Part shown: positions 33,821-64,000 of the stretch, piece by piece
How positions within the stretch are numbered: position 1 is the first letter of the stretch
How the letters are laid out: the number at the start of each line of letters is the position of its first letter
Origin: Candidatus Bathyarchaeota archaeon
GTDB taxonomy: Archaea > Thermoproteota > Bathyarchaeia > Bathyarchaeales > Bathycorpusculaceae
Assembly (NCBI GenBank): GCA_963811105.1
Contig: CAWEPZ010000002.1
Span: 64,001-128,000 of the forward strand
Direction of reading: 5' to 3'
DNA length: 64,000 bases
Position numbers and translations under genes: made by a program
The notes under the pieces: model-generated
Seen by the model: only the letters and a program-made list of their open reading frames with translations
What the model was told of the DNA's origin: nothing
Databases searched by the model: none

Positions 33821-35209
33821 ATGTCTAAACCAAAAGATTATTCATGGATGACTAAAGATAAACTAATGACTTACACCTTTATTGCACTTGTAATTCTTGC
33901 AGTCGTGACTGCTATTTTGTGGTCACCAGTAACTCCATTTGACCCAGTCTCCACCGCCACTACAAATTACATGAACTTAGGATTAACAGTTGCCATAAAC
34001 TGCATCATCGCCGTTGGAATTGCTGTAGGAATTGATGCGCTACTCTTCAAAGTAACATCAGACAGTCCATTGAACACAATGTCCGCTGCCGTCTTCGGCT
34101 TAATCGTAGCACTCTCGTACTCACTGGGTATTCCAGCAATGGCGTCAATTGAAGAATCAATGTTACCGCTGGTTGCCCCTCAATGCTTTCTTTACGTCGC
34201 ATTGATTGCACTCTTAGGCATGGTTGTATTCAAGAAAATTCAGGGCCTAGCTGGCAGAAAATTCCTTAACCCTGCTGCCGCAGCTAAACTACTTGTACTC
34301 ATACCATTCCTGTACGTTCTCTTTCTACCGAAAGACCATGCTGGTGATATTCCAACTCTTGCAACAAAACTTGACTATTCCGGCGCATCTTCGTTCGGAG
34401 CTTGGATGAGATTCTGCTTTAGCAATCCAAACGAAATACACACAATAACATCCGTCAACCTGAAAACTCCAAGTTTTACCGCAACTGATGTTTTCCAAGT
34501 CCTTTTCCTTGATAAGTTCCACGGCTGGACAGGCGGCGCTTCAGCTCTTGCAGTCATTATAGTGGGTGTTGCACTCTTTGTTATTGCCCGCAGATACATT
34601 AAATGGAGAATAACTGCAGCTTACATCGGTACAACCATAATAATGTCATTGATATTCTTCGCAATTTACGGTGGAGATCCGCTACTTCGACTCATGTTTG
34701 AACTCTTCATAGGCAGCTCAATATTCTTGGCGTTCTTCATGGCAACGGATCCAGCGTCAACGCCTCTAACATACATGGGACAAATAATATTTGGAGTTGG
34801 ACTAGCAATAATAACTGTACTGTTGCAAACTTATGCTAACTTCTTTGGAGGTTCACTCGTAGCATTGTTAATAATGAACCTAACCTCGCCGGCACTTGAC
34901 AGGGTTGGCAGAACAAAACCAACAACCGAAAGCAAAGAGCCCAAACTGCCCAAAGCCAAAGCATTTGCTCCTGAAAAAGTCAAAACCTACGAATGCATGA
35001 GATGCGGTGCATGCATGAGAGTCTGCTGCCACAAACTAAGCCCCATATTCATTAAGCAGGCATTTGATAAAATGGACGTCAACAGCATGGTTAATCTTAA
35101 CGCTGACTATTGCACAGGATGCGGACACTGCAGCTACGTTTGCCCCTCAAGAATCGACCTTAAAGGTGCGGTACTAAGATCAAAAGCGATGCTTCGCCAA
35201 CAAGAATAG
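33821..35209 (+). CDS. RnfD/NqrB-like membrane protein fused to an RnfC-like 2x[4Fe-4S] domain
   Basis: FLNPAA, G..GG.SALA, AFFMATDP.S.P, LIMN...P.LD; C-terminal CMRCGAC..VC and CTGCGHCSYVCPS. Confidence 0.8.
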   Translation: MSKPKDYSWMTKDKLMTYTFIALVILAVVTAILWSPVTPFDPVSTATTNYMNLGLTVAINCIIAVGIAVGIDALLFKVTSDSPLNTMSAAVFGLIVALSYSLGIPAMASIEESMLPLVAPQCFLYVALIALLGMVVFKKIQGLAGRKFLNPAAAAKLLVLIPFLYVLFLPKDHAGDIPTLATKLDYSGASSFGAWMRFCFSNPNEIHTITSVNLKTPSFTATDVFQVLFLDKFHGWTGGASALAVIIVGVALFVIARRYIKWRITAAYIGTTIIMSLIFFAIYGGDPLLRLMFELFIGSSIFLAFFMATDPASTPLTYMGQIIFGVGLAIITVLLQTYANFFGGSLVALLIMNLTSPALDRVGRTKPTTESKEPKLPKAKAFAPEKVKTYECMRCGACMRVCCHKLSPIFIKQAFDKMDVNSMVNLNADYCTGCGHCSYVCPSRIDLKGAVLRSKAMLRQQE

Positions 35210-35299
35210 AAGCATCAATTTTCCCCTAACTTTTCTTTCTTTTTTGAAAAAATAGAGTCAGAAGTATTACTTTTAGACCTAAATGAAAAAGAAAATTAC

Positions 35300-36610
35300 T
35301 TATCGATTTCTGAGATCATCGCTTTTTGAAGCGAATTCCCAAACGATGTTGCCTTTCCAAATATCGCCGAGTTTTGTAACTGTGATTTCTTTATCGGTAA
35401 TTTCGATGAGGCCTTTGTCTTTTAGTCTTTGAAGCTTTTCTGGAAAGACATCTTCTGGCAATTTTCCGAATTTCTGTTTAAATTCTACTTTGTCTACTGG
35501 CAATCTCAGGTAGAGCCTTGTCATTACTTTTCTCATCATATCTTCAATAGGTGATTCAGCAAGCCTAGCGATGGGTAATCTGCCTGCGTTAACAGCTGCC
35601 ATGTACTCGTTTATGTCCTCTATGTTTGAGTAGGAAAACCTTTCAAAGTAACCCATAAAGCATCCTGCGCCAGTGGTGAGCTGAGCTGCAAAAGGCCAAC
35701 CCATGAGGCATGATTCCTTAAAATGCCATGGTTCCCTTGAAAAACGATCGTGACCAACTGCTTTGTAACCTGCGTCTGTTAAAAGTCTGTAAGCGTTAAG
35801 ATACATTTGGGTCTCAAATTCTGAGTTTCCCGGTGCAGGCATTTTTCCTTCTTTTATTTGCCTCGCCAGCTGTGTCTCAGGATAAACCTCTAATGCATAG
35901 CAGTCAATTTCTACGTCTAATTCAATGGCTTTTTTGAGAGTGCTCATCCAACTCTCCATTGTTTGCCCTGGAAGATTATACATTAAATCGACGCATACAC
36001 AAACCCCAAGTTTTCGCGCTTTTTTAATCGCTGCAGCCAAATGCTCAGCTGAATCTGGCAAGCAAAGCTTTTTCCTAAGTTCATCGTCGAAGGTTTGTGC
36101 GCCCATGTCCATTTGAAAAACGCCGTAAGCTGCTAATTTATCAATTTTATTTGAGTCAAAGCTCTTGGATGACGCTGTTACTTTGATGAAGTACTCATCA
36201 CTTGTCATAAACCGCTTTTTACAAAAATCTACTAAATCAATTATTTGCTCAGCGCTAAGGATGCTGGGGGTTCCTCCGCCCAGAACTATTTCGTCAAATA
36301 CGCTGGTTTTAATGTATTTTGTTTTAGCGTACATTTCTAATTCTTTTTTAAGAGTTATTAAATACGGCTCTATGTGCGCTTTGCTTGTCGGTGTTGTGGG
36401 GAAATAACAAAAAGAACATTTTGAGTCGCATATGGATACCCACGGCTGCAATTCCATCAATTTGTTAGATGTGTTCTCTGTTGATAAAAACTCAATAAAT
36501 GCCTTGTACATTTCAGGCTTAATATCTGGATAGTCCCTGTAAGTGTAAGGTGGCCAGTTTGACCTTAAATCATAAACAGCTGGTTTCTTTTCAGGAGCCT
36601 GGTTTTTCAT
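35300..36610 (-). CDS. HemN/HemW-like (class C) radical SAM protein
   Basis: CDSKCSFC, GGGTPS, G.QTF, DLMY.LP.QT, HemN_C-like tail. Confidence 0.82.
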   Translation of the reverse strand: MKNQAPEKKPAVYDLRSNWPPYTYRDYPDIKPEMYKAFIEFLSTENTSNKLMELQPWVSICDSKCSFCYFPTTPTSKAHIEPYLITLKKELEMYAKTKYIKTSVFDEIVLGGGTPSILSAEQIIDLVDFCKKRFMTSDEYFIKVTASSKSFDSNKIDKLAAYGVFQMDMGAQTFDDELRKKLCLPDSAEHLAAAIKKARKLGVCVCVDLMYNLPGQTMESWMSTLKKAIELDVEIDCYALEVYPETQLARQIKEGKMPAPGNSEFETQMYLNAYRLLTDAGYKAVGHDRFSREPWHFKESCLMGWPFAAQLTTGAGCFMGYFERFSYSNIEDINEYMAAVNAGRLPIARLAESPIEDMMRKVMTRLYLRLPVDKVEFKQKFGKLPEDVFPEKLQRLKDKGLIEITDKEITVTKLGDIWKGNIVWEFASKSDDLRNR

Positions 36611-36709
36611 CGTTCGCTTTCCTCAAGGTTTACTTTTTAAAAGGTTGATAGCATAATAAAGTTTCTGTTAAAAATGCGTGAATTAAAGAAAAGCGTTTTT
36701 GACCTACAA

Positions 36710-38969
36710 TTAATGGGTAAACAACTTTATGCCCCGTTTTTTGATTCGAATTATCACTAATATAACTACTGCTAAAGCAACAAAACCCAACAACGTAGAT
36801 AGCAAAACTAAAATCGGTTGTGGAGTTAGATTTGGAACCTCATAATTTTGAACTGCTCCGACAGCGTAAATCATTCGGTCATATGAACCAACGTAGACAA
36901 CGCCATTCACAACCGCTGGAGAAGAAACAACTTTGTCACCAGTCAAATAACTCCAAACTAGGTTGCCGCTTGCTTGATTTACCGCGTAGAGGTTGCCGTC
37001 GTATGAACCTACAAAAACCATGCCGCCTGCAACCGCTGGGGAAGAAGCAACATCGCCCTTTGTTTGGTAACTCCACATGTAATTGCCAGTCAAAGCGTCG
37101 ATCGGCGTAAAGTTTCCCGTCATCGGACCCTACGTAGACAACGCCTTCAGCTATTGCTGGAGAAGAAGCCACAGCGCCACCAGTTTTATAATTCCATAAA
37201 CGTTTGCCATTAGTCTCGTTTAAGGCGTAAAGGTTGCCGTCATAGGACCCAAAATATACCTTGCCATCAGCAACGGCAGGCGAAGAACTCACCATGTCAA
37301 GCGTCGTAAAATTCCAAAGTATAGCCCCAGTTGATGCGTTTAAAGCATAGATGTTGCGATCTAAGGAGTCGATGAAAACTCTTCCATCTGCAACCGCAGG
37401 AGAAGAAGTAACAATCATATTGTCCGCAATAAAACTCCAAATTAGCTTGCCTGTTGAAGCATCTAAGGCGTAGGTTTGGTTGTCTTCTGAGCCAACATAG
37501 ATGATGCCGTCAGCCACGGTTGGCGAAGAAACCACTGCGTAGCCTGTTTGATAGCTCCATTTGAAGGCGCCGGTAACCGCATTCAAAGCGTAGATTTTTC
37601 CATCGTATGAGCCCACGTAGGCGGTGTCATTTGTTACAGCAGGTGAAGACAACATAATCATGTTGCCAGCCGTAAAACTCCAAATGACATTGTTGTGTAG
37701 CTCCCAATCGTAGCCAACCATGCCTGTAGAAGCGTTTAAGGCGTAAAGTTTGCCATCATGTGAACCCACATAAACCATCCCATAGGCAACGGTCGGGGAA
37801 GAATCAACTTTACCGCCACTTTCAAACTTCCATTCCAAATTGCCGTTAATGCGGTTTAGAGCGTAAAGTTGGCCATCCCAAGACCCTACATAGACCACGC
37901 CGTCAGCTACGGCTGGACGAGTTATTACCATATCGCCAGTCGCAAAACTCCATTGCAAGTCGCCTGTTTGAGTATTTAAAGCATAAATTTTGTTGCTGTA
38001 CGAACCCACATAAACCATGCCGTTGAAAATGGTTGGGGAGGAAGCGACGCCGTTGCCTGTATTGAACTGCCACTTGAGGCTACCCTCAGCTGAGCTTAGG
38101 GCGTAAACTTTTCCGTCGATGGACCCAACATAAACTACGCCGTCAATTACTGCCGGGGAAGAAAAAATTTCGTTACCAGTTGTGAAATTCCAAATTTCCC
38201 TGCCATTATTGGCGTTTAAAGCGTAAACTTTGTTGTCTAATGACCCAATGTAAACTATGCCGTTAGCGACTGTTGGAGTAGAAACAATATTGTCTCCCGT
38301 TGTGTAATTCCATATTTTATTGCCATTTAAAGCGTCTAAAGCGTAGATTGAATGGTCTAACGAGCCGCAATACAAGATGCCATCTGCTATGGCGGGTGAC
38401 GAAAGCATAATTTGTCCCCCTAGCGCGTAACTCCAGATGAGTTCGCCTGTCAAAGCATTTATTGCGTAGACATTCTTGTCTACAGAGCAAACGTATACTA
38501 TGCCATTTGAGACAATTGGGTCAGAATCTACATAGTAACCAGTCTTATAACTCCAAATTAGGCTGCCAGTTTCCGCGTTTAAAGCATATAATTTGTCATC
38601 TTCTGAACCCACATAAACCACACCGTCCGCAACAGCAGGACAAGAAACCACTCTGCCCCCAGTTGTGTATTTCCAGATTACAGCGCCATTTTTAGCGTTG
38701 AAAGCGTAGATTTTATTGTCATATGAACCCACGTAAACAACGCCGCCATTAACAGTGGGCGAACCCATTTGACCTCCAGTGCTGAATTTCCATAAAGTTT
38801 GGTTAGTGATTGGGGCGGAAGTGTCAGATGCGCCTGTATGTGTTAGGTCATGATGAAACATGGGCCAAGCCTCTTCAGTTGACTGTGCTGAGGAAATACT
38901 GTTCATTAAAAATAGAGGGGTCAAAAATAGCGTCATCAGCGCTAAAGTGAAAATTATTTTGTTTTTCAT
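36710..38969 (-). CDS. Surface protein with 16 PQQ-type beta-propeller repeats, split by a one-base frameshift near 37104
   Basis: Signal peptide, WPMFHHD..HTG, 16 repeats W....G....SSP.V..G.VYVGS.D...YAL; TM and basic tail lie in the second frame. Confidence 0.85.
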
Positions 38970-39109: not shown

Positions 39110-40183
39110 TTATTTCTTGCGTAAGCTTTCAGGAATGTAAGCGCATGCTGGATCTTCACCGTAAATGTCGTTTGTGTATGCGTAAGCTCTGTTTCTGCAA
39201 CCGCCACATATTTCTCTGTATTCGCAGACCCCGCATTTTCCTTTCAGGACACTTCGGTCTCTGAAGCTCGTGAAGTAAGGTGATTTTTGCATTTCTTCCC
39301 ATGTTTGTTTGAGGCTCTTGTCTCTTATGTTTCCCAGCATCATTGCTTCCATAGGACGAAGGTCAGTGTAGAAGCATGGAATTAAGTTGCCGTTTTCCGT
39401 TACGCTGATATATCCACCAAAAGCGAAGTAGGTGCATTTGCCGTGATATTTGCGGTCGTACCATTCTTGGAAGTTAGGAATGTTCCTTTGTTTTACTACC
39501 CGTGCGTAATGTGGGCAATGCACGTGAATGTCAAAAACGCCTTCATACTTAACTGATAAATCCCATATGTGGTTTAATGCTTCCTCGTATTGTTCTGGGG
39601 TTGGAGTTAACTCCATTGTTTCCTTTGCTCTTCCGCTCGGAACCAAATGATTGAACCATACAAAATTGGCATGGTATTTTGCAGCTAACTCGCAAACATG
39701 ATCAAGATGATTATAATTAACAGACGTTATTGCAGCCGCTAAACCGTTAAGGATTTTTCCCGCTGATAATTTTTCGATGGCTGCTAACGCCTTTTGGTAT
39801 GAGCCTTTGCCTCTCAAAATATCGTTAACTTCTTCGGGCCCATCGATGCTAACCGATGTCCATACTTGATTTTTTACTAGATTATCGTAGATTGCCCCGT
39901 CAACAAAGCAGCCGTTTGTCAAAAGACACACGTTGAGACCTTTATTTTTTGCGTATGTGACTATTTCAAATATGTCTTTTCTAAGAAGCGGCTCTCCGCC
40001 TTTTAAGCCAAACCATCTTACCCCAAAATCATAGACCTGATCAACCAGACGTAGGGCTTCTTGTGTGGTCAATTCTTTTGGGGCATGCGCGTCTGTGGCG
40101 TTTACGTTACAGTATTTGCAGCGTGCGTTGCAGGCTCCAGTAGCCCTCCATGAAGTCATAAGTAATGGCCCTTTTTGTGCCAA
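39110..40183 (-). CDS. Radical SAM/SPASM protein (AhbC/AhbD/NirJ-like)
   Basis: CNARCKYC, GGEPL, SPASM C..G.......G...PC and GKCGVCEY...CGGCR.RAY......DP.C. Confidence 0.85.
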   Translation of the reverse strand: MAQKGPLLMTSWRATGACNARCKYCNVNATDAHAPKELTTQEALRLVDQVYDFGVRWFGLKGGEPLLRKDIFEIVTYAKNKGLNVCLLTNGCFVDGAIYDNLVKNQVWTSVSIDGPEEVNDILRGKGSYQKALAAIEKLSAGKILNGLAAAITSVNYNHLDHVCELAAKYHANFVWFNHLVPSGRAKETMELTPTPEQYEEALNHIWDLSVKYEGVFDIHVHCPHYARVVKQRNIPNFQEWYDRKYHGKCTYFAFGGYISVTENGNLIPCFYTDLRPMEAMMLGNIRDKSLKQTWEEMQKSPYFTSFRDRSVLKGKCGVCEYREICGGCRNRAYAYTNDIYGEDPACAYIPESLRKK

Positions 40184-40471: not shown

Positions 40472-42034
40472 GTGAATATCGTGTCAGCCGATTTAGTGTT
40501 GCTTGAGGGGAAAGTTTTAACAATGAATCCACTTGCGCCTCTTGCCGAAGCTGTAGCTGTGAAAGGTGACAGAATTATTCAAGTTGGTTCAATTGAAGCT
40601 GTGAGCAAAAAAATTGGAAAAAGAACAAAAATTATTCGTCTAAATGGCAAAACGGTTATTCCAGGCATAATTGATACACACATTCATCTCGCTGATTTTG
40701 GCAGAATCCTAACTTGGCTAAACCTTGAACAAGTATCATCCATCAAAACACTGCAGTATTCCCTAAGACAACGCATAAAACAGACTTCAAAAGGCAAATG
40801 GATTATTGGACGAGGCTTGGATCAAAAACATTTTGCAGAAAAACGTTTGCCGACTCGGTTTGATCTCGACATTGTTTCTTCTGCTAACCCTGTAGTTTTG
40901 TATCATAAATCCGGGCAAGTTTGCGTTATTAACAGCCGTGCATCCGAAATAGTTGACGTTGCTAAACAGTCAGCCTCTACTATTGAAAAAAACCAAAAGG
41001 GTGAATTTACGGGTATTCTGCGAAATGAAGCCACTAACTTAGTGTGGAACGCAATTCCAGCCCCTGATGTAGAGGAATTGACTGCTGGAGCACGAATAGC
41101 CTGCAAAAAAATAGTTGAAGCAGGAATAACCAGCATACACTGGATAATTCTATCTCCAGTTGAGCTTTCCATTATCCAGAAATTGAATCAACAAAACAAG
41201 TTACCACTTAGGATTAACGTTATATCGCCTGTAACTCTTCTTGATGAAATCTCAGCTTTGAAGGAAAACTTCAAGCAGGACTGGTTAAGGTTTGGCGGCT
41301 TTGTTATTTTTGCGGACGGCTACCTATCTGCCCGAACTGCAGCGTTATTTGAGCCTTACAATGATTACCCCACAGAACAAGGACGGCTGCTTTTTTCAAC
41401 AGAAGAAATGGTCAAGTTAGCATTGAAGATAAGCAAAGCAGGTTTTCAACTAATCATTCATGCAGTTGGCGACAAGGCGGTGGATGCCGCTTTAAGTGTT
41501 ATCGAACAAACCCAACGCTTAGAAGCGGGCAAGGCTTTGCGTCCTCGCATTGAGCAGGCTGCCCTGCTAAACCAAAAATTGCTGGAGCGAATAAAAAAGG
41601 AGCAAGTAGTCGTTTCCGTCCAGCCCCGCGTCGTAGCCTCAGAGTTTTCAGTTTGGTCAGCCCTAAGCCATTTAGGAACTGAGAGGGGAAGTTGGCTTTT
41701 TCCATTGAAAACTTTGGTTGAAGCTGGCATCCGGGTTATCGGGGGTTCTGATTGCCCCATGGAACCTCTAAATCCGATGCTTGGAATTCAAGATGCTGTT
41801 AACAGACAATTTTTTGCTAAGGAGCAGGTAAGCATTGAAGAAGCTTTACGAATGTATACGATTGATGCTGCTTATTCTAGCTTTGAAGAAGACGTTAAAG
41901 GCTCAATTGAAGTGGGCAAGTTAGCGGACATAACTGTTCTTACAGGCAACCCGAAAACTTCCCATCCTAACAAAATAGGCGATATTGCTGTTGAAATAAC
42001 CATTGTAGGCGGGCGAGTGATTCATTCAAAATAA
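40472..42034 (+). CDS. YtcJ-like amidohydrolase (amidohydrolase 3 family)
   Basis: PG.IDTHIH, HAVGD, GSDCP, GSIE.GKLAD. Confidence 0.85.
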   Translation: MNIVSADLVLLEGKVLTMNPLAPLAEAVAVKGDRIIQVGSIEAVSKKIGKRTKIIRLNGKTVIPGIIDTHIHLADFGRILTWLNLEQVSSIKTLQYSLRQRIKQTSKGKWIIGRGLDQKHFAEKRLPTRFDLDIVSSANPVVLYHKSGQVCVINSRASEIVDVAKQSASTIEKNQKGEFTGILRNEATNLVWNAIPAPDVEELTAGARIACKKIVEAGITSIHWIILSPVELSIIQKLNQQNKLPLRINVISPVTLLDEISALKENFKQDWLRFGGFVIFADGYLSARTAALFEPYNDYPTEQGRLLFSTEEMVKLALKISKAGFQLIIHAVGDKAVDAALSVIEQTQRLEAGKALRPRIEQAALLNQKLLERIKKEQVVVSVQPRVVASEFSVWSALSHLGTERGSWLFPLKTLVEAGIRVIGGSDCPMEPLNPMLGIQDAVNRQFFAKEQVSIEEALRMYTIDAAYSSFEEDVKGSIEVGKLADITVLTGNPKTSHPNKIGDIAVEITIVGGRVIHSK

Positions 42035-45516: not shown

Positions 45517-45728
45517 TGTAAACGTAAACTTCTTTTGGAAATTTATCCCTATCGATAACTTTCCAATAACTGGAGTCTTAGCAGCGTTGGCAGTGTCAAG
45601 CAATATGTCAATCTTTGTCATCAGTGGGCACTTTCCACTCACTGTTATAAGCTAATCCCGTGAAATCAATGTAATAGAGAAAAAGCAATTCTACAACAGC
45701 TTCTCTAAAAATTAAGGAGAAAAACAAG

Positions 45729-55324: not shown

Positions 55325-56389
55325 TTAAGTCACTTTTCTAAGCATGTCTATAATGGATAAGTTATAGGGACATTTAGGTTCACGCTGACCGCATCCATTG
55401 CATTCGTCAGCCTCAACTTCTAATCCGCCATAGAGCTTTGTGCCCAATTTTCTAATTCATAGGTCATGTAAATCATGTGGAATCTCAGAATTGCCGGTAT
55501 GTTTAGGTTCTCAGAGTAACGCATGCAAAGACCGCTGTCTCGACTGTAACTTCCATCAGGCACAAAGTTGAATCGGTTTTTTTCGTCTCTTGTTAAGCCG
55601 TTAAATTCATTTCCAGCCTTGCTGGCAACTCTACTTCTTCAGTTGACCTAAACCCTGGAATTGTTATGGCCTTATTTTGGCTCAAAACATACCCCGGCGG
55701 GCTGGAAACCATTGCATTCTGGGTCTGTGTCCCAACCACTCTAAGTTCCGTTTCATCTGAAACAAGCGATAGCGAAGGCTTATACAAACGGTTATTAGTT
55801 TTGAGGTTTTGGCTGACAGCGGCTTCATAATGGCAACTCCGACATTATTTTTTTTGCATCTGGTAATAACTCTTCAAGTGCCTGCAGAGTCACGAAGTTA
55901 AGCAGAACAAGATCTATGTCAATCTTCCCCGTTTCAATGGCTCTTAATAGAACTCGGGGTCTGTGGCAAGTGATACCAATAAAATCAATTAAGCCTCTAG
56001 AACGTGTTTGCTTGCAAGTTTGCAGGGAGCCATGCTACCCCATTGCCTTGGATAGAGTTTTTTCGTCATCAATTCCATGCAGTTGAATTATCTATCTTGT
56101 AAGTTTGAAGTCTTCTTAGGCTATTTTCAACGTGTTCTACTAATTTTTTTGTTCTTGATCCAGTTCTTGTATCTATAACACAGTTGTTTCGGACATTTTT
56201 CAGGGCGGAGACGATTTTTTCTTCGTTGTCGCTATCAAGCTTTGCGGCGTCAAAATATTTAATGCCTCAATCGAAGGCTTTTCTGACAACTTGTAAGGTG
56301 GAATTCATGCTTAATTCTGAAATCCATGTTCCGTCAAATCCGATTACGCTTACTTGAAGGTCTATTCTTCCAAGCCTTCTTTTTTGCAA
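55325..56389 (-). pseudogene. Aldo/keto reductase with C-terminal Fe-S domain, heavily decayed
   Basis: LQKRRLGRIDLQVSVIGF..., AFD*GIKYFD.A, QLHG, FIGIT.H.P, NIPAILRF; many stops and frameshifts. Confidence 0.75.
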
Positions 56390-56399
56390 TCAAAGCCAT

Positions 56400-57776
56400 C
56401 TACGCCATGCCTGAACTATGAACAGCATCGGGGTTTAATCTTCGCTTGGCAAAGTTCAAAATGCCTTCACGTTTTACCCTTTTCATTATTTGTTTTGGGG
56501 ACCTATGGAACTCCCGGAAAAACTTTTTTTGAATTTGCACAAGGGTATCATAGTTGTACTCATCGGTTTTTACGCTGATCAAAAACTCGTCAAGACGCGT
56601 GTACCGTTTGCTTTCGAGCATTTCCTGATAGAGTTTGCTGTCTGGATAGGCAATGAAAATGTTGAATTGACACCAATCAGGATCCAACTTCTTTGCGAAT
56701 TTCAGCGAAGCTTCCATGTCTTGAAGAGTTTCGTCAGGTAAACCAAGCATGAATGAGCAAGCGACTTTTATACCGTTTTTGCGGCAAAGGCTAAACGCGT
56801 ACTCTATTTGCCTTAGTGTTGTGTTTCTGCCAATGCGCTGCAGTATCCTGGGTGAACCTGATTCAACTCCGAACCAGATAGTTTTGCATCCAGCTTTACT
56901 CATTGCTGCTAGCATTTCCTGATTGACCAAGTCTACCCGTGTGTCGCAAACCCACTCCAAATCAAGCTTATTCTCAATCATCTGGCTGCAAAGTTCAAGA
57001 GTTTCCTTTTTTCTAAGGGTAAAATTATCGTTAATGAAGTAAATTCCTTTTGTGCCGTACCTGCTTTGTAGGTCTTGTATTTCGCCGATTACTCTTTTCG
57101 GGCTGAAGCTGCGGCATATATTACCCCAAAGCTTTCTTGTCTCGCAGAAACCACAGTTGAAGACGCATCCGCGCGAGATGCTCATGACATCAGCTGGCTT
57201 AGCCTTTAAAAACTCAATTGTCCTGTCATAGAGTTCAAGTGGTAACAAATGCCTTGCGGGATATGGGATTTCATCGGGATTTTCAATGAATTTGGGCTGG
57301 TTTAGAATGTTTTTGCCTTGGCGAGTGCATGAAACACCCGGTATGGTTGCCGCGATAGGCTCATTGCCGTTTGTAAGTGCTGTGACTAGGTCTACTATGG
57401 CTCTTTCGCCTTCACCCATAACTACATAGTCAATCTCTGAGTTAGCCAGCAAAGTCTCAGGCATGTAGGAAGCATGCCATCCACCGACTACTACTTTGCA
57501 GTTTGGCAGAGCTTCTTTAATGAATTTTGCTGTTTCTATACAGCGTCTGAAGGTTGCTGAGCCGCAGGTTATTCCCACAATTTGCGGGTTAACCTTTGTA
57601 ATATACTCTTTGAGTTCACTGCTTGATTTGTTCATAAGGTAATTATCAAGCATTTGGACTGGGAAGCCTGCTTTTTCCAGTGCAGCGGCCACATACATTA
57701 ATCCAATTGGAGGCAACCGTTTGCCATGAAACCACGCGCTGTTTTCAGGCGGAGCTGTAGTCATAAGCAGAATCAA
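56400..57776 (-). CDS. Cobalamin-binding radical SAM protein
   Basis: PPIGLMYVAA, GGWH, SRGCVFNCGFC, FGVESG. Confidence 0.9.
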   Translation of the reverse strand: MILLMTTAPPENSAWFHGKRLPPIGLMYVAAALEKAGFPVQMLDNYLMNKSSSELKEYITKVNPQIVGITCGSATFRRCIETAKFIKEALPNCKVVVGGWHASYMPETLLANSEIDYVVMGEGERAIVDLVTALTNGNEPIAATIPGVSCTRQGKNILNQPKFIENPDEIPYPARHLLPLELYDRTIEFLKAKPADVMSISRGCVFNCGFCETRKLWGNICRSFSPKRVIGEIQDLQSRYGTKGIYFINDNFTLRKKETLELCSQMIENKLDLEWVCDTRVDLVNQEMLAAMSKAGCKTIWFGVESGSPRILQRIGRNTTLRQIEYAFSLCRKNGIKVACSFMLGLPDETLQDMEASLKFAKKLDPDWCQFNIFIAYPDSKLYQEMLESKRYTRLDEFLISVKTDEYNYDTLVQIQKKFFREFHRSPKQIMKRVKREGILNFAKRRLNPDAVHSSGMA

Positions 57777-58027: not shown

Positions 58028-59140
58028 TTATTTTGCTAATATTTTTGATATGGCTGTTATGAGTTTTTGGTTGTCTTCAGCTGATCTGATTGTGACTCTG
58101 AAATAGCTGTCGTCTAAGCCCATGAATGTGCAGCAGTCGCGGATTAGTATGCGTTGATTTGTAAGAACTTCTTTGAGTTTAGTGGATGTGATTTTCCCGT
58201 TTGTTATTTTTACAAGCAGAAAGTTTGTTACGGACGGGTAAACATGTAAACCAACTATTTCCTCCAAGCCTTTGGCAAGCATTGCTCTCTCTTTAGCGAT
58301 GATGACTTTAGTATTTTGTATGAATTCTGTGTCCTTGAACGCTGCAAGCGTCGCAAAACTTGCAAGGCCATTAATGCTCCAGGGCAGGCGAATTGCATCT
58401 AGCTTGTTCACCAAGTTTTTTGCGGCGATGCCGTAGCCAAAGCGTATTCCAGCCATGCCGTAGAATTTCGTGACTGATCGGATAACAAACAGGTTCTCAT
58501 ACTCATTTATCATGCCTGCTAACGTGGTGAATTCGCCTTTTTCTGCAAACTCAATGTAATTCTCGTCGATGCTGAAGATAATGTCTTTCTTATGGCAGAA
58601 ATCCAAAAGCTCCAACACCGACTCTTTACTGTACAATGTGCCCGATGGGCTGTGCGGGTTGCAGATGCAAATTATTTTTGTGTCATCGGTAACTGCTTTC
58701 TTTATTCGCTCATTATCTAAGGAAAAATCTTCGGGCAACTGAACAAAAACCGCTTTGCCTCCGACACGTATAGTAGCTTTTTCATATTCGGAAAATGAGG
58801 GTATAGGAATTACCGCGTTAAAATTGGCAGACAAAATTTCGGTTATGGCGTAAATGAGTTCGATTGAGCCGTTTCCTAAAACGATGTTTTCTTCTTCAAC
58901 GCCTTGCCCAACGTACTTGGCGATTTCTTCTTTGAATTCCACTGGATTTGGGTCAGGATAAAACTTTATGAACTTAGCATATTGCTTCACTGCTTCTACG
59001 GCTTTAGGTGAAGGCCCAAGGAAATTAATGGGTCCACTGAATTCAAGCACTTCTTCAAGTGGGACATCGTATTTTCTGCTGAAACCCCAGATGTCTCCGC
59101 CGTGGCTAACAAACCTGCGTTCCTTACATGTGCTTGCCAG
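58028..59140 (-). CDS. cobD: Threonine-phosphate decarboxylase CobD-like (HisC-family PLP enzyme)
   Basis: HGG.I upstream of the tracked start, EFS..IN.LGP, GNGS.ELI, NP.SP.G, RS.TKFYG.AG.R.GY; in-frame CTG at 59140 after GGAGG; HisC activity not excluded. Confidence 0.72.
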   Translation of the reverse strand: MASTCKERRFVSHGGDIWGFSRKYDVPLEEVLEFSGPINFLGPSPKAVEAVKQYAKFIKFYPDPNPVEFKEEIAKYVGQGVEEENIVLGNGSIELIYAITEILSANFNAVIPIPSFSEYEKATIRVGGKAVFVQLPEDFSLDNERIKKAVTDDTKIICICNPHSPSGTLYSKESVLELLDFCHKKDIIFSIDENYIEFAEKGEFTTLAGMINEYENLFVIRSVTKFYGMAGIRFGYGIAAKNLVNKLDAIRLPWSINGLASFATLAAFKDTEFIQNTKVIIAKERAMLAKGLEEIVGLHVYPSVTNFLLVKITNGKITSTKLKEVLTNQRILIRDCCTFMGLDDSYFRVTIRSAEDNQKLITAISKILAK

Positions 59141-59678
59141 CTTTCCCTTCCTCCATTATCCTACCTATTTCTTTCTCAACTACTGATTGAGCTTTGAAGT
59201 GAGCGTTATACAAGTTAATTACCTTGTATAGCCAGTAAACTCCTCCAACGCCCAACGTAAATATGGTGACGAAAACATAAGTTTTTATCGGTATCGTCTG
59301 AGGCATAAACATCCGCTCTGGAAAAGCAGCCGCCAAAAACGCATCTTGATTTCGCTCATGCACCAGTAAATCCATAGACAATAAATATACGATTACAAAT
59401 GCTGGTATAACCAAAATTATGCTGGCAGCCCACGCCTTGGCGTTCCGCTCGGCCAAATTCTCGCTTGCTACAGGTGGCCGCTTTCCGCGGCTTATTAGAT
59501 AATCAGCAACCTGCTTCTCCACCTTAGCATCATGCTGAAAATGCTTGTTTCTGCCTTTAACAAGACGGTGAAACATAGGGAAAAAAGCTACGCCAAAAGT
59601 AATAACTGCTCCAAGAAACCACATGGAAAACCACATTTTCTTATCAGAGTAATTATTACTGCACATAGCGGTTTCCAT
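59124..59678 (-). CDS. Membrane protein (DUF4234-like)
   Basis: Repeated ITFG/FTLG...YW.Y....N.H motifs. Confidence 0.55.
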   Translation of the reverse strand: METAMCSNNYSDKKMWFSMWFLGAVITFGVAFFPMFHRLVKGRNKHFQHDAKVEKQVADYLISRGKRPPVASENLAERNAKAWAASIILVIPAFVIVYLLSMDLLVHERNQDAFLAAAFPERMFMPQTIPIKTYVFVTIFTLGVGGVYWLYKVINLYNAHFKAQSVVEKEIGRIMEEGKAGKHM

Positions 59679-59761: not shown

Positions 59762-60460
59762 ATGAACCACGAGGAAATGCTGCTTTCGATAATTATCCCC
59801 GTCTACAACGAAGAATTAACGATAGGCAACATCATCGACCGAACCAAAATTGTTGTGCAGCAAACAGGATTAAGAAATGAAATAATTGTTGTGGACGACC
59901 GCTCGCATGATAAATCTCTTGAAATTGCCAAACGCTACAGTGTTAGATTATTCACTTTGAAACAGCACTTGGGCAAGGGCTATGCGTTGCGGGCTGGTTT
60001 CTTCAAAGCCAAAGGTGAAATAATAATCACCATCGACTCAGATGGTTCACATAAACCGGAAGAACTGCCCGAAGTTTTGGAGCCCATTCTCCAAGATAAA
60101 GCAGACCTTGTTATAGGCTCCAGATACCTTAACCACAAAAAAGTAGCGGCAAGAAAACTAAACGCCTTCGGAGTTGGGCTTTTCAACTCACTGATTGCAC
60201 TCCTAACGGGCGTAGTCATTACGGACTCACAATCAGGCTACCGTGCCATGAAACGTCAAATCCTCAAAGATCAAAAACTAGAATCAGGTGGATACGAAAT
60301 AGAATCTGAAATGCTGGTTAAAACTGCGAAAAAAAATTTCAGAATCACCGAGGTTCCGATAAGTTTCCAGCAGCGAACGTATGGCAGGTCAGGAGTTGAC
60401 CCGGTAATAGACGGCTTCAAGATTTTGCTATCAATAGTTTCAGCTGACTTGAAGGGTTAA
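59762..60460 (+). CDS. GT2 glycosyltransferase (polyprenol-phosphate sugar synthase-like)
   Basis: IIPVYNEE, VDD.S.D, GKG.A, D.DG.H, GSR, D.QSG. Confidence 0.88.
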   Translation: MNHEEMLLSIIIPVYNEELTIGNIIDRTKIVVQQTGLRNEIIVVDDRSHDKSLEIAKRYSVRLFTLKQHLGKGYALRAGFFKAKGEIIITIDSDGSHKPEELPEVLEPILQDKADLVIGSRYLNHKKVAARKLNAFGVGLFNSLIALLTGVVITDSQSGYRAMKRQILKDQKLESGGYEIESEMLVKTAKKNFRITEVPISFQQRTYGRSGVDPVIDGFKILLSIVSADLKG

Positions 60461-60465
60461 GCAAG

Positions 60466-61470
60466 TTGGCTGGAAATGAATATCCCAAAGTTTCAATCAT
60501 AGTTGCAGCTTACAACAGCGAACATACGATTGAAGAATGCCTCAAATCTATTTTAGCGCTGGATTACTCAGCGGACTCGGTAGAAATTATTGTTATGGAT
60601 GGCGGATCAAAAGATGATACTGTTCAAAAAGCACAAAAATATCCCGTAAAAGTCATTTCCATCCGCTTAAACGCACCTGCAGCCTACAACTACGCCATGA
60701 AAATCGCCAGACATCCCGTTTTAGGCTTCATTGATGCAGACGCCAAAGTCCAAGCAAACTGGCTGCACCTTCTTGCGCCTGACTTGAAAGAAACCCAGGT
60801 AGCCGGAGTAAGCGGCAGCATAGAAACATGGAACAATAATAATCCGTGGGCAAGAAGCATCGGCTACGAACTCAAAAACCGCTATCAACGTGTAGGAAAA
60901 TACACGAGCCGTATAGCCACTATGAATCTTCTGATGAAAAAAGCGGTCATTGAAGAGGTTGGCGGATGGGATGAGACTCTGCCAAGTCAGTACGACACTG
61001 ATTTAGGTTTTAGAATAAGTGCTAAAGGCTACAGATTCGCTTATGATCCAAGAGCCGTTTGCTACCATTTTAATAGGCCTACTTTGAAAGCTTATTATCG
61101 GCAGCAGTTGCAGTATGGCAAAAACACGTTGAGACTTTATTTCAAGCATGGTTCCTTGGCGAAGGGCGATGAAATTACAGATTTTGGCATGAACATCCAA
61201 CCTGTTCTTCTTTTAGTTGTTAGTGTATCTTTCCTGATCGGTCTGTTTCCGTTTATGAGATCTTTATGGTATGTTACGGGTTTAATTTTGGGTATTATGC
61301 TTGTTTACTTTGTTTACTCAGCCGCCAAACTTGCTTCAAAGTTTCACGACCATGTTGCTTATCGGTTAGTGGTGCTTTGTTTTGTGCGAGCGTTCGCGTG
61401 GTTCGTCGGGGCAGTAATAACCACAGCCAACTACCTGCTGGGCAGGGGGAGGAAAAAACACAATGCGTAG
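60466..61470 (+). CDS. GT2 glycosyltransferase with C-terminal TM helices
   Basis: VSII...YN, DGGS.D, DAD, GGWDE, D.DL..R. Confidence 0.87.
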   Translation: MAGNEYPKVSIIVAAYNSEHTIEECLKSILALDYSADSVEIIVMDGGSKDDTVQKAQKYPVKVISIRLNAPAAYNYAMKIARHPVLGFIDADAKVQANWLHLLAPDLKETQVAGVSGSIETWNNNNPWARSIGYELKNRYQRVGKYTSRIATMNLLMKKAVIEEVGGWDETLPSQYDTDLGFRISAKGYRFAYDPRAVCYHFNRPTLKAYYRQQLQYGKNTLRLYFKHGSLAKGDEITDFGMNIQPVLLLVVSVSFLIGLFPFMRSLWYVTGLILGIMLVYFVYSAAKLASKFHDHVAYRLVVLCFVRAFAWFVGAVITTANYLLGRGRKKHNA

Positions 61471-62656
61471 TGTATGTTTTGTTTCTCCTGAATACTGGCC
61501 TCTATCTGGCGGAACAGGCGCTTATGTTTACTATCTTTCCAATGAACTTATTAAAAACAACTACAAGATCTGGGTGGTAACTGGCTCAAACCAGACCATA
61601 GACGTCAAAGTAAACGAGCAGTTGTACGTTTTCTTTCTTAAAATCCCAAGGACGCCAATAATAAAATCTTTTTTGCTTGCAGCCTCAAGCTACCGTAAAC
61701 TCAACAGCGTTCGTCATAGCGTCGATTTGGATATTACGCATGCTAACTTGCCTTTGACTCCGAATTTTGCTGTGCCCCCAAACTTTGGAAAAACCTTGAT
61801 TTGCACTGTACATTCAACATGGAAAGGCGAAGCAGAAGCAATAAAGGACGAGCCTTATAGTAGGCTGAACGCCAACGAGAAGTTCATGGTCAGCTTTAAC
61901 TGGTTTTTAAGGATTTTTGAAGAAAGAATGCTTGAGAAGGCACAGAAAATCATTGCTGTAAGTCATTTCACAAAACGCGAGTTAGTTGAGTACTACAAAA
62001 TTCCTGAGGACAAAATTCGGGTTATTCATAACGGCGTTGACGTGAAAAAATTCAAGCCCGCTCAGGATAAGCACAAAATCAAGCAAGAACTTGGGTTTGA
62101 CCCAGATGATTTACTTATTCTCTCCGTTGGGCGGCTTTATGCGCGCAAAGGCTTATTCACTCTTATTGAAAGCATGCCAGCCGTGATTCAGCGGTTCAAA
62201 AACGTGAAATTCGTGATTTCAGGCAAAGGGCAAAGCAACGAAATGAGAAAGCTGGTAGTTCACGCCGAAAAACTAGGGGTAGAAGATAACATAGTCTTCA
62301 CAGGTTATTACCCAGATAAGAAATTACCCAAACTCTATCAAGCCGCAGACGTGTTCGCCTTCTCCACTTTCTATGAGCATCATCCTTTTGCTGTTTTAGA
62401 GGCGCTTGCAACGGGCTTGCCTGTGGTGACAACTTGGGTTGGTGGAATTCCTGAAACTATTGAAAGTGGCAAAAACGGCTTTTTAGTTGAACCGTTCAAT
62501 TCTAAACAATTCGCAGAACGCATACTGTACCTACTTGAGCATCCCTCTGAGGCAGCCCAGATGGGTGCGTTTGCCAGAAAAACAATCCTTGAACATTTTG
62601 ACTGGAGAATAGTTGTTAAAGAAGCAATAAAAGTCTACGATGAAGTGCTCCGTTAA
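61463..62656 (+). CDS. GT4 glycosyltransferase
   Basis: P..GG, HNGVD, VGRL..RKG, E.....LEA.A.G.PVV. Confidence 0.9.
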   Translation: MRSVCFVSPEYWPLSGGTGAYVYYLSNELIKNNYKIWVVTGSNQTIDVKVNEQLYVFFLKIPRTPIIKSFLLAASSYRKLNSVRHSVDLDITHANLPLTPNFAVPPNFGKTLICTVHSTWKGEAEAIKDEPYSRLNANEKFMVSFNWFLRIFEERMLEKAQKIIAVSHFTKRELVEYYKIPEDKIRVIHNGVDVKKFKPAQDKHKIKQELGFDPDDLLILSVGRLYARKGLFTLIESMPAVIQRFKNVKFVISGKGQSNEMRKLVVHAEKLGVEDNIVFTGYYPDKKLPKLYQAADVFAFSTFYEHHPFAVLEALATGLPVVTTWVGGIPETIESGKNGFLVEPFNSKQFAERILYLLEHPSEAAQMGAFARKTILEHFDWRIVVKEAIKVYDEVLR

Positions 62657-63615
62657 GCGATTTCTATTGGCTCTTGTCTATATGCCTTGGTTATTTTCTG
62701 GAAAAGTTTCACAATATCCAAAGAGCAAAACAGAAACTTTGTTGCGTACTCATGCTGGTAAATCATCATCTGAGCTTTCACTGGCAAATCGATTCTTGGG
62801 GGCTCAAACCTATGTGCCACTTCGGACACCTGTAAACCTTCAACCGATATGGTTTGCTCTTGTAAGCCTGTTTTTTTGGCTATGTAGTTGAGATAGGTCT
62901 GTTTCCAATCTAACTCCATGATTTCTGTAGCGGTTATGTCTACAGCTAAAGCGTCGTTGCCAGTTATCATTAACCCCATTTTAACTGGTTTGCCTTTTGT
63001 TGGGCCGTTGCCTTCGATGCCTGTCCGTGCATCCATAATCGTTAATTGTGGCTTGAACAGGGTGTAAAGGCGATAGAACACTTCGGGCAAGTATGGATGC
63101 AAATAGATACGTTTGTTGCTGGGCACGCAGCCAAAGAGGTTTTTGACGGCGCCGCTATAAGCCATAAACTCATGAGTTTTCATCAAAGGCAAATCCACAA
63201 CAGCATCAGCCTCAAGAACGGTTTTGGGCAGAAACAGTCGGCTCAATGGAGTGTTGCCTTGAAATTTTACTTCAACAACTTTATCTTCTGACAAGTTGAT
63301 GACGCTGCCTCCTGCCGCTTTCACTGCAGCTTCGACGCCCGTTTTATCGAAGGCATTCCAGCAGGGGTAGTTGAACCCATTTGATTCGCCCACGATGACT
63401 TCACTGTTCCAATCCCGCAACAAGCCGACGAGTTGTTGTATCAATTTGGGACTCGTAACGACACCAGGCAGGTATTCGGGGTGACTTAGGTTTGGCTTAA
63501 TGAAAATTTTGTGTTTGCCTTGTAGCCCTGAATTGGTGACGGCTTCCTTTACAATATCACTTATATCGTCTTTTACACGAAAAATTTTGACGGTTTTTTG
63601 ATGTGCGCCGGGCAA
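62653..63615 (-). CDS. DUF362 family protein
   Basis: IKPNL, T.P, KTH......GAVKNLFG, EG.GP..G, D..A.D. Confidence 0.82.
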   Translation of the reverse strand: MPGAHQKTVKIFRVKDDISDIVKEAVTNSGLQGKHKIFIKPNLSHPEYLPGVVTSPKLIQQLVGLLRDWNSEVIVGESNGFNYPCWNAFDKTGVEAAVKAAGGSVINLSEDKVVEVKFQGNTPLSRLFLPKTVLEADAVVDLPLMKTHEFMAYSGAVKNLFGCVPSNKRIYLHPYLPEVFYRLYTLFKPQLTIMDARTGIEGNGPTKGKPVKMGLMITGNDALAVDITATEIMELDWKQTYLNYIAKKTGLQEQTISVEGLQVSEVAHRFEPPRIDLPVKAQMMIYQHEYATKFLFCSLDIVKLFQKITKAYRQEPIEIA

Positions 63616-63617
63616 TA

Positions 63618-64000
63618 TTATGCTCCTCTTGTTTGTTTTCCCATTATACAGCCCGGGTCAGAATCCAGCATGTCACCGTTATGGTATGCTGCTGAACGTG
63701 CTCTGCATCCCCCACAGATGTATTTGTAAGTACATTTTCCGCAGGCGCCTTTGAGGTTTGCTCGGTTTCTGAAGGAGATGAAGAGTGGTGCGTTTAACCA
63801 TATGTCTTGGAACTTTTTGGTTTTCAAGTTGCCAACATTTACTGGCAAGAAGACACATGGGTGAACATCTCCCTGTGGCGACAACGAACAATACAGCCTT
63901 CCTGCCCCACATCCGCCTATGAAGTCTGCCAGTGGCACAGCTTTCTTGGTTACTTTAACTGTTTGTAAGTGCGCCATAGACATTGTTACTTCGCCGGTAC
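63618..64000 (-). CDS. Radical SAM/SPASM protein, C-terminal part (runs off the window)
   Basis: CGAGR.Y.....G.V.PC and G.CG.C.Y...CGGCRAR......D..C. Confidence 0.8.
   Translation of the reverse strand, partial: TGEVTMSMAHLQTVKVTKKAVPLADFIGGCGAGRLYCSLSPQGDVHPCVFLPVNVGNLKTKKFQDIWLNAPLFISFRNRANLKGACGKCTYKYICGGCRARSAAYHNGDMLDSDPGCIMGKQTRGA

Follow-up and report, generated by a model that had tools for sequence, protein, structure and literature searches.

A conserved supercluster of about 50 kb in a lineage of Bathyarchaeia brings together five cobalamin (B12)-binding radical S-adenosylmethionine (SAM) enzymes, a second gene of the tetraether synthase (Tes) family, a putative Gms-type gene and second copies of late cobamide genes. 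We give a probability of about 45% to the reading that this is an island for tailoring membrane-spanning tetraether lipids, interleaved with late cobamide assembly. Most of the supercluster lies in a 64,000-nucleotide stretch of DNA from Candidatus Bathyarchaeota archaeon (assembly GCA_963811105.1, contig CAWEPZ010000002.1, positions 64,001 to 128,000), here called the window. It corresponds to C2:64001-128000 of a 3.49-Mb genome (G000; 15 contigs, 96.65% complete), and L001 denotes the region that spans the window end and continues beyond it. Genes were identified from a listing of open reading frames (ORFs), Pfam (23 of 23 ORFs scanned) and the curated cut-offs of NCBIfam. Together with a motif scan, these give eight radical SAM enzymes with intact CX3CX2C motifs between window positions 33821 and 64000, five of them B12-binding. 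The original prediction, made from the letters of the window, had described the same eight enzymes, and all the genes it named in that stretch are present where it placed them. Its limits for the region were only partly right: the genes inside are real, and the block starts at 33108, one gene earlier, and ends about 19 kb past the window end, the SPASM gene at 63618 being the C-terminal part of a 474-aa gene. The gap that it left at 55325-56389 is not empty and holds a broken aldo/keto reductase (AKR)-ferredoxin gene. The coordinates of all features are collected in Table 1.

The substrates, the reactions and the working of the parts as one pathway are what we propose. In the scheme, the second tetraether synthase-family enzyme (Tes', the prime marking the divergent copies of the block) and a UbiA-family enzyme (UbiA') would make a distinct tetraether core, which the Gms-type enzyme would cross-link or bridge. 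The five B12-binding enzymes fall into four ancient orthogroups of the family to which the lipid-tail enzymes Gmm, Grs and Ted belong, and these would modify inert carbons of the biphytanyl chains at different positions or by different chemistry, such as methylation, desaturation or ring formation. Glycosyltransferases would attach sugar head groups, and electrons would come from a fusion of an RnfD-like protein with ferredoxin (RnfD-Fd), from a DUF362 protein and from the AKR-ferredoxin, the gene for which is broken in G000. The cobamide, possibly a variant, would be supplied by CbiB', CobD', CobY', CobS' and Dph6-like amidases beside the canonical CobZ-CobT-CobS-CobY genes. Among the products that the original prediction listed, a modified membrane (glyco)lipid is the best supported because of Tes', the Gms-type gene and the Gmm-type relatives of the B12-binding enzymes, and a role of the BzaD/BzaE type, on the lower ligand of cobamides, is unlikely.

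The block is conserved well beyond one genome. As related loci, 79 stretches of 10 kb on either side of orthologues of the fourth B12-binding enzyme (paralog 4) were collected, and genes in them were counted by tblastn with the window proteins; the loci vary in length, and low per-locus counts are lower bounds. Of 41 relatives, 38 have a homologue of paralog 4 (E ≤ 1e-30), as do all 24 genomes of the same genus. At least two B12-binding radical SAM genes occur in 77 of the 79 loci, and in 48 of 48 among loci of at least 20 kb. A Dph6-like gene is present in 59 of the 79, CbiB' in 39, a block glycosyltransferase in 28 and the long SPASM gene in 11. Larger regions from four genomes of the same genus (G003, G014, G012 and G001) and from G040, a member of another family in the same order, contain the same gene families in shuffled order. 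The region is therefore a conserved unit. Scattering of the genes in close relatives, which would have refuted the original prediction, was not seen: the B12-binding genes stay within 10 kb of one another in those 77 loci, and the five larger regions come from two families. Within G000 itself, there are 12 matches to the B12-binding domain, 11 of them in radical SAM proteins and five of these in the block. Five of the 11 genes fall within 14.8 kb; if genes were placed uniformly, the chance of this would be about 1e-5, so the grouping is beyond chance.

Part of the block is almost fixed in order. On one side, this run consists of CobD', a small membrane protein, two family 2 glycosyltransferases (GT2), a family 4 glycosyltransferase (GT4), DUF362, the long SPASM gene, CobY' and CobS'. 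On the other side are the epimerase, UbiA', Tes', DUF1616, GT2, GT4, a CobZ-like gene, a Dph6-like gene, CobT, CobS and CobY. There is a 4-nt overlap between CobS' and CobY', after which come the Gms-type gene and DUF362 on the same strand; the CobS'-CobY' side faces the epimerase, UbiA' and Tes', which are overlapping genes as well, across a gap of 38 bp. This arrangement of overlapping and facing genes is kept in the genus and mostly in G040. Beyond the window end the order is the rest of the SPASM gene, a CobY-like nucleotidyltransferase, a CobS paralog, a GalE-like epimerase, a UbiA resembling digeranylgeranylglyceryl phosphate synthase and the Tes-family enzyme. After this come DUF1616, GT2, GT4 and the CobZ-like phosphatase (129 bits vs a cut-off of 152.5), and farther downstream the second Dph6-like gene, CobT (406 vs 240), CobS (127 vs 110) and a second CobY-like gene.

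The five B12-binding enzymes (paralogs 1 to 5, 458-491 aa) are all encoded on the minus strand, and each has the domains PF02310 and PF04055 and a single CX3CX2C motif. Measured against paralog 1, they are 29-56% identical, and each orthogroup is common to another family, which rules out a recent tandem duplication. Their family is very large, since a profile built from the five finds 35,892 cluster representatives at E ≤ 1e-30. Among 151 genomes of the phylum, 66 have a match to this profile at E ≤ 1e-60. In 11 of the genomes, from seven families (G033, G084, G138, G159, G097, G151, G085, G061, G049, G100 and G115), the best-matching gene lies directly beside a Gms-type gene on the same strand. 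The adjacency was confirmed in 10 of 10 fetched loci and in G033, often with overlapping stop and start codons. A quick maximum-likelihood tree (IQ-TREE, 35 sequences, midpoint root, six long-branch sequences left out, support by the Shimodaira-Hasegawa-like approximate likelihood ratio test, SH-aLRT, only) resolves four orthogroups, each represented in G000, G003 and G040; paralogs 2, 3 and 5 each have one of their own, and paralogs 4 and 1 share the fourth. Paralog 5 is the most divergent of the five. In the tree, the Gms-adjacent enzymes form one clade (SH-aLRT 90), and its sister group (86) is the clade that holds paralogs 1, 3 and 4 (92). Judged by this tree, the window enzymes stand close to the Gms-coupled clade without belonging to it, a position that fits the remark on multiple "Gmm2" copies in Bathyarchaeota in PMC11214058.

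The Gms enzyme (glycerol monoalkyl glycerol tetraether, or GMGT, synthase) has been described as a homologue of AhbD that carries roughly 100 additional residues at its N-terminus, annotated as COG4001, and 188 Gms sequences were counted in Bathyarchaeota (Garcia et al. 2024, PMC11214058). The long SPASM gene of the block (L001:618-2042) has this build. The AhbD model aligns to residues 118-467 of its 474 (309.6 bits vs a cut-off of 500), PF04055 covers residues 123-277 and SPASM residues 378-438, and in front of them is a 117-aa Cys4 extension (CPAC...CEKC) with only weak zinc-ribbon matches. A search with it in the 151 genomes gave 73 with a match at E ≤ 1e-60, in two classes. Long-form matches, which are common in the phylum, are 42-49% identical and begin at query positions 10-70, in reading frames of 470-540 aa; short-form matches start at query positions 104-117. 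By architecture and distribution, we class the long SPASM gene as putatively Gms-type.

The second pointer to lipids is Tes' (L001:5438-6919), which has the Zn_ribbon_HMPTM and Radical_SAM domains and reaches the cut-off of NF045702 (about 454.8 bits vs 450). It is the lower-scoring of two copies in the genome, the canonical Tes (C2:32648-34069) scoring 668.3 bits, and is 38% identical to that copy. In all five genomes checked, Tes' (450-494 bits) was found with the cluster or near it: it adjoins the cluster in G003, G014, G012 and G040 and lies about 40 kb away in G001. Copies of the Tes' type, as against 560-690 bits for canonical ones, are present in G000, in 18 of 24 genus genomes and in G040, and in none of 15 other relatives; the only Tes copy of G032 scores 443.8 bits.

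Several published systems resemble the block in part. Earlier work has already described gms-gmm clusters as well as multiple Gmm-like genes in Bathyarchaeota, and PMC11214058 reports gms-gmm(-grs) clusters and several "Gmm2" copies in many Bathyarchaeota. The published similarity threshold for Gmm is E ≤ 1e-65. The likeness to gms-gmm lies in an AhbD-like radical SAM enzyme with an N-terminal extension paired with B12-binding radical SAM enzymes, a pairing seen in the 11 related genomes above. As far as that description goes, the block differs in having five such enzymes in four orthogroups, none within the Gms-adjacent clade, and a Gms-type gene about 6 kb from the nearest of them (56400-57776). 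It also adds Tes', UbiA', four second loop genes, Dph6-like genes, RnfD-Fd, a HemN-like radical SAM enzyme and an amidohydrolase.

A further relative is the Ted-Hgs-Grs locus of Candidatus Bathyarchaeota B1_G15 (10.1101/2025.10.20.683597), where a bathyarchaeal Gmm homologue is a tetraether desaturase; such homologues, according to the same text, methylate or desaturate tetraethers. The likeness is that a Gmm-related B12-binding radical SAM enzyme from Bathyarchaeota acts on tetraether tails with chemistry that goes beyond methylation. Published Ted homologues were collected at no less than 500 aa and their genes overlap an AttH-like hydratase gene, whereas the window paralogs have 458-491 aa; no AttH-like family was found in scans of the block, and no genome-wide AttH search was made. 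The claim that no characterised archaeal cluster has such content needs qualifying. The gms-gmm(-grs) clusters and Gmm2 copies are published (PMC11214058), and the organisation of the supercluster was not found in print. The literature search found no paper on the supercluster, its second Tes or its second set of cobamide loop genes, and none joining DUF362 and radical SAM.

A number of observations weigh against lipid tailoring. None of the five paralogs reaches any NCBIfam cut-off, no window paralog falls inside the Gms-adjacent clade, and paralogs 2 and 5 branch farther out in the quick tree. The families were placed by neighbourhood and architecture, with no verified Gmm, Grs, Ted or Gms sequence in the comparison; no NCBIfam model and no Protein Data Bank structure was found for any of these four. 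The commonest neighbours other than radical SAM genes, the Dph6-like gene (59 of 79 loci) and CbiB' (39 of 79), are of carboxylate- or amide-acting families with no obvious role on hydrocarbon tails. Two genomes, G033 with its Gms-type/B12-binding radical SAM operon and G028 with a B12-binding enzyme of the same clade, have no Tes match at E ≤ 1e-90. The best solved relative of the paralogs is the sugar-acting AprD4 (114 bits), which hints at a sugar substrate, as do fusions, in distant relatives from other organisms, to domains of GT2, GT4, DUF362 and class I methyltransferases. The lipid scheme leaves the HemN-like, short SPASM and Amidohydro_3 genes unexplained, and the original suggestion that all 30 kb may be one pathway goes beyond what the genes show.

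The operon of G033 deserves a description of its own. At G033:C52 (L113), positions 5116-11418, a compact operon codes for a 509-aa divergent radical SAM enzyme, a B12-binding radical SAM enzyme and a Gms-type enzyme, followed by two membrane proteins of the TauE/SafE family. In G037, a B12-binding radical SAM gene lies between two TauE genes.

One could consider sugars as the substrates instead. The B12-binding enzymes would C-methylate, deoxygenate or epimerise sugars of a surface glycan, an N-glycan or a glycolipid head group that is built by the five or six glycosyltransferases of the block and the epimerase. Besides AprD4, this draws on fusions seen among 20 high-scoring representatives that were scanned: two join the B12-binding radical SAM enzyme to DUF362 and GT4 (P0138, P0150), one (P0125) to GT2 plus a class I methyltransferase, another (P0177) to such a methyltransferase only, one to a glycosyltransferase-like domain (P0148) and four to SPASM. 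The GT4 of the block weakly matches the radical SAM-associated model TIGR04157; AglJ-like GT2s, DUF1616 and GH130 are close by, and secreted propeller proteins lie within the block. The fusions, however, come from distant relatives with scores summed over two to four domains, and the nearest defined relatives of the paralogs pair with Gms-type genes and not with glycosyltransferases. The propellers are abundant in the genome (65 and 21 tblastn matches) and may be bystanders. On balance, a sugar pathway is distinctly unlikely.

The proteins P0121-P0150 are a curiosity in themselves, being giant predicted proteins of 1000-2600 aa with two to five tandem radical SAM cores, some of them also with B12-binding, SPASM, DUF362, GT4, GT2, methyltransferase or TPR domains. 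Either they are genuine fusions or separate genes were joined when they were called. Outside the cluster, two B12-binding radical SAM genes of about 593 aa each, at C11:1006001-1021000 (L107) and C11:740001-755000 (L108), both adjoin a gene for a secreted propeller of 830-880 aa with pyrroloquinoline quinone (PQQ) repeats, so the pairing of such an enzyme with a propeller recurs outside the cluster. No NCBIfam model matches these two enzymes at E ≤ 1e-40.

The role of the cobamide genes is the other half of the problem. The original prediction had the pathway supplied with its own cobamide, and this is supported in an unexpected form, since CbiB and CobD of the block are second, divergent copies. 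A complete hem/cbi cluster exists at C2:298-325 kb, about 190 kb from the block (HemA, L, B, C, D, CobA, CbiA, X/C, D, E, T, L, F, G, H and cobalt transport genes), and contains the canonical CbiB (324.9 bits) and CobD (300.2 vs a cut-off of 290.55); the canonical CobZ-like, CobT, CobS and CobY genes are at the far end of the supercluster itself. Compared with the canonical proteins, CbiB' is 42% identical, CobD' 37%, CobS' 31% and CobY' 34%. Judged by identity, these four and Tes' are old second paralogs. CobD', CobY' and CobS' are under their curated cut-offs, and CbiB' is the only one of the four to pass. The true start of CbiB' is probably about 40 codons downstream of the start of the longest ORF; its homologues mostly have 327-335 aa and score 236-253 Pfam bits vs 285-304 for the canonical type.

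CbiB' is present in G000, in 23 of the 24 other genomes of the genus (split in two) and in G040, and in none of 15 other relatives; the lone genus genome that lacks it is 65% complete. CobS' has the same phyletic pattern as CbiB' and Tes', though the three patterns rest on two lineages and are not independent counts. The copies resemble the archaeal loop assembly genes (CbiB, CobD, CobY, CobS, CobT, CobZ) in belonging to the same families, with CbiB' above its cut-off. They differ in being second paralogs at 31-42% identity with no second CobT, the genome having only one, and in that CobS' and CobY' lie on the strand of the Gms-type gene and face UbiA'-Tes'.

Dph6-like PP-loop enzymes add a second unusual feature. 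The in-block gene fails the Dph6 cut-off, and a better-scoring PF01902 gene is found elsewhere: there are three in the genome, of which the best (226.7 bits vs 147.7 in the block) is on contig 11. Two Dph6-like genes lie in the supercluster, at window 48440-49090 and at L001:16945-17622. A single PF01902 copy is found in 12 of 13 relatives of the order without CbiB, and two to five copies in most CbiB-bearing genomes. The extra genes co-occur and co-localise with CbiB, CobT and CobS, the rest of the cbi pathway being present. In G035, a Dph6-like gene (L116:9771-10460) sits within an operon of CobD-CbiB-CbiS ... CobY (with an Asn-synthase domain)-CobS. CobQ/CbiP was found in none of 41 relatives at E ≤ 1e-20, and G000 has only weak partial matches, all inside the CbiA gene. 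Because CobQ/CbiP was not found, because the copies track cobamide genes and because of the G035 operon, the Dph6-like genes are good candidates for corrin amidation. The in-block gene is a candidate carboxylate amidase, and, as a bolder idea, such enzymes may replace the missing cobyric acid synthase (CbiP/CobQ) in these archaea.

These same genes suggest a product that is itself a variant cobamide or a new tetrapyrrole cofactor, for which the block would provide a second late assembly line, with B12-binding, HemN-like and AhbD/NirJ-like enzymes tailoring the macrocycle or its ligand. Next to the canonical loop genes there is a full second set, CbiB' scores above the curated CbiB cut-off, and Dph6-like genes and CbiB' accompany the B12-binding enzymes most constantly. 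The lack of a CobQ/CbiP match in all 41 relatives at the threshold given, the tracking of CbiB-bearing genomes by extra PF01902 copies and the clean G035 operon point the same way. Nearly all radical SAM families of the block also have tetrapyrrole-acting relatives: BchE, BchQ/R, AhbC/D, NirJ, HemN and ChuW provide the top named models for most of them. The scores, though, are well under the cut-offs. The BchE model TIGR02026 (cut-off 481.35) gives a range of 151-262, with paralog 3 at 249.5, paralog 4 at 261.6 and paralog 5 at 201.6; paralog 1 is best matched by HpnJ (245 vs 577.6) and paralog 2 by the Sden_1168 family (203 vs 575). The cut-offs of the AhbD/NirJ models (TIGR04545, TIGR04051, TIGR04055) are missed by the short SPASM enzyme at 39110-40183 (222) and by the Gms-type enzyme (310, both vs 500), and the HemN-like enzyme scores 191 vs 400 with ChuW; the canonical hem/cbi cluster, moreover, is elsewhere.

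A lower-ligand route of the Bza type has a likeness here, in a class I methyltransferase flanked by B12-binding radical SAM genes near cobamide genes, and some such enzymes of Bathy-6 have been called BzaCDE homologues in PMC11697101. It was rejected as unlikely, because no PF01964 (ThiC/BzaF) match was found in the genome and BzaD scores (TIGR04385) are 92-151 vs 450. A variant cobamide would also have to make do with a single CobT. It leaves Tes', UbiA', the Gms-type gene and the glycosyltransferases of the same conserved operons unexplained, and Gms-adjacent relatives also occur where CbiB and CobS are both absent, as in G033. We consider it rather unlikely.

The coupling of CobS' and CobY' to lipid genes is not explained by simple cofactor supply. 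Since these two are translationally coupled, share a strand with the Gms-type gene and face UbiA'-Tes' across 38 bp, and since there is no second CobT, a lipid-linked corrinoid or head group comes to mind. The CbiB'-CobD'-CobY'-CobS' line, in that case no spare cobamide route, would use a phosphodiester to link an isoprenoid ether lipid with an amino-alcohol phosphate or with an entire cobinamide, and the product would be a membrane-anchored corrinoid for membrane-bound B12 enzymes or a new aminopropanol-phosphate head group. This is a long shot.

Catabolic or peptide substrates were considered as well. In the first case, radical SAM enzymes and secreted PQQ proteins would act on lignin-derived aromatics, in keeping with the 7-20 B12-binding radical SAM genes per Bathy-6 genome and the many secreted PQQ-domain proteins tied to lignin in PMC11697101; the radical SAM enzymes are cytoplasmic, however, and the propellers are secreted. 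In the second case, the block would mature a ribosomal peptide or a peptide-derived cofactor. SPASM proteins, B12-binding radical SAM C-methyltransferases and class I methyltransferases are typical of clusters for ribosomally synthesized and post-translationally modified peptides (RiPPs), and matches to ApyD (130-242 bits) and to PqqE were seen. As in the original prediction, no precursor peptide was found: of 30 short ORFs tested outside the large genes, 22 have any match, and only 6 are conserved in more than two related loci, all of them pieces of the broken reductase gene. Domain scans of the block showed neither a transporter nor a protease nor a leader-binding gene, and a RiPP cluster is ruled out as the leading explanation by the lack of a conserved precursor ORF. 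Either substrate class would leave Tes', the Gms pairing and the cobamide paralogs unexplained, and both together appear very improbable.

Finally, there may be no single pathway at all, and nothing but common regulation or inheritance would keep separate B12-dependent and envelope genes close to the cobamide loop genes. From genome to genome the order of genes is heavily shuffled, members lie on both strands, some of them, such as the propellers and the small secreted protein, show poor conservation or come from huge families, and one member, the AKR gene, is broken in G000. Against this stand more than 20 families retained despite the shuffling in two families of organisms, and overlapping, translationally coupled genes that link cobamide-type and lipid-type members. 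Tes', CbiB' and CobS' also share a phyletic pattern, though in two lineages only. We regard such a loose assemblage as unlikely, and tetraether tailoring interleaved with late cobamide assembly is the reading that we prefer.

Table 1. Features of the block within the window, with position, strand and supporting matches (scores in bits, vs curated cut-offs where given; loci counted among the 79 related ones)
Feature	Position	Strand	Support
Small protein with winged-helix N-terminus and two hydrophobic segments	33108..33560	-	weak LexA_DNA_bind, HTH_IclR and TrmB matches, E ~1e-3
RnfD/NqrB-like membrane protein fused to 2x[4Fe-4S] ferredoxin	33821..35209	+	PF03116 132.6; Fer4 families
HemN-like radical SAM with HemN_C	35300..36610	-	PF04055, PF06969
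Secreted PQQ-repeat beta-propeller	36936..38969	-	PF13570, PF13360; N-terminal hydrophobic segment
Short-form AhbD/NirJ-like radical SAM/SPASM without N-terminal extension	39110..40183	-	PF04055, PF13186; radical SAM core from residue 9
Amidohydro_3 metal hydrolase	40472..42034	+	PF07969 311; single copy; 24/79 loci
Polytopic membrane protein, five hydrophobic segments	42160..42930	+	15/79 loci; no Pfam or NCBIfam match
B12-binding radical SAM, paralog 1	43019..44407	-	PF02310 91, PF04055 81; orthologues in G003, G040
CbiB'	44515..45642	-	NF002281 277.3 vs 273; TIGR00380 233.2 vs 165.9 (both passed)
Surface protein with propeller, immunoglobulin-like domain and C-terminal anchor	45729..48269	+	PF13360, Big_3_5; N-terminal hydrophobic segment
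Dph6-like PP-loop ATP pyrophosphatase paralog	48440..49090	+	PF01902 148; Dph6 model TIGR03679 135.9 vs 197.3
Small secreted protein with C-terminal anchor, hydrophobic segments at both ends	49180..49818	+	poorly conserved, 2/79 loci; no family match in library scans
B12-binding radical SAM, paralog 2	49903..51378	-	PF04055, PF02310; 48/79 loci
B12-binding radical SAM, paralog 3	51490..52884	-	PF04055, PF02310; 48/79 loci
B12-binding radical SAM, paralog 4	52923..54308	-	PF04055, PF02310; anchor for the 79 loci
Class I SAM methyltransferase	54609..55316	+	PF08241 80.7; single copy; 25/79 loci
Broken AKR + 4Fe-4S gene, at least 4 fragments	55325..56389	-	fragments match 26-31 related loci
B12-binding radical SAM, paralog 5	56400..57776	-	PF04055, PF02310; 56/79 loci
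CobD', pyridoxal phosphate-dependent, threonine-phosphate-decarboxylase-like	58028..59050	-	TIGR01140 258.4 vs 290.55; 25/79 loci
Small membrane protein	59124..59678	-	weak DUF4234 and BCHF matches only; single copy; always adjoins CobD' in the conserved block
GT2, AglJ/dolichyl-phosphate-hexose-synthase-like	59762..60460	+	PF00535; TIGR04182 160.7 vs 325
GT2 with C-terminal membrane segments	60466..61470	+	PF00535, PF13632; three hydrophobic segments
GT4	61463..62656	+	PF00534, PF13439; weak matches to glycolipid synthases and radical SAM-associated TIGR04157
DUF362 protein	62653..63615	-	PF04015 165; single copy
Gms-type (putative) radical SAM/SPASM, C-terminal part of 474-aa gene	63618..64000	-	whole gene L001:618-2042, ends at G000:C2:129042

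Some members of the block need a further word. The first protein is a candidate membrane-tethered regulator, and its gene adjoins the RnfD-Fd gene in G003, G014 and G012 too. The RnfD-Fd protein, a candidate membrane electron donor, has ten hydrophobic segments, two CX2CX2CX3C motifs and an SGAS motif at residue 187; it is single copy in the genome and kept in G003, G014, G012 and G040. The HemN-like protein, whose top NCBIfam model is ChuW/HutW, is also single copy, with orthologues at 65-71% identity in the clusters of the same four genomes. An orthologue of the propeller at 36936..38969 adjoins the SPASM gene in G003 and G014. The larger surface protein at 45729..48269, the one with 65 matches, belongs to a very large family and is possibly a bystander.

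The AKR gene is intact in relatives, as a 361-aa ORF with Aldo_ket_red and Fer4 domains directly after the paralog-5 orthologue (L002:7950-9035 and L005:7935-9020). The fragments in G000 are about 55-75% identical to L002 and the flanking genes 86-93%; as the fragments diverge more than the flanks, the breakage is more probably decay than an assembly error. No cobalamin riboswitch or other known RNA was found in 30000-64000 with Rfam at gathering thresholds.

Elsewhere in the window, the genes upstream of the block are archaeal (TFIIB, L7Ae, RtcB, archease and Elf1). An intact lysine (diaminopimelate) operon of DapA, DapB, Asd, LysA, DapF and an aminotransferase occupies 3761-10092, and a fragment of an IS110-type transposase lies at 10358-10936. 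A small integrated element of about 4.9 kb (26526-31432) is bounded by a 28-nt direct repeat (26 of 28 identical) in tRNA-Gly(TCC) at 26495-26573 and at 31405-31432. It has an archaeal integrase (30530-31414) beside the repeat, and DUF7669, DUF4238 and an ORF without an assigned family between the repeats. A mobile island as the origin of the block is unsupported: base composition (GC) is even across the window, and the sole integrase belongs to this separate element upstream.

Bathyarchaeia are among the most abundant archaea of soils and sediments, and their tetraether lipids feed widely used environmental proxies. For the genes by which these lipids are modified, the block offers four orthogroups of B12-binding radical SAM enzymes, a second tetraether synthase and a Gms-type gene as candidates. 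The duplicated late cobamide genes, and the possible replacement of cobyric acid synthase, bear on which cobamides these archaea make and share with their communities.

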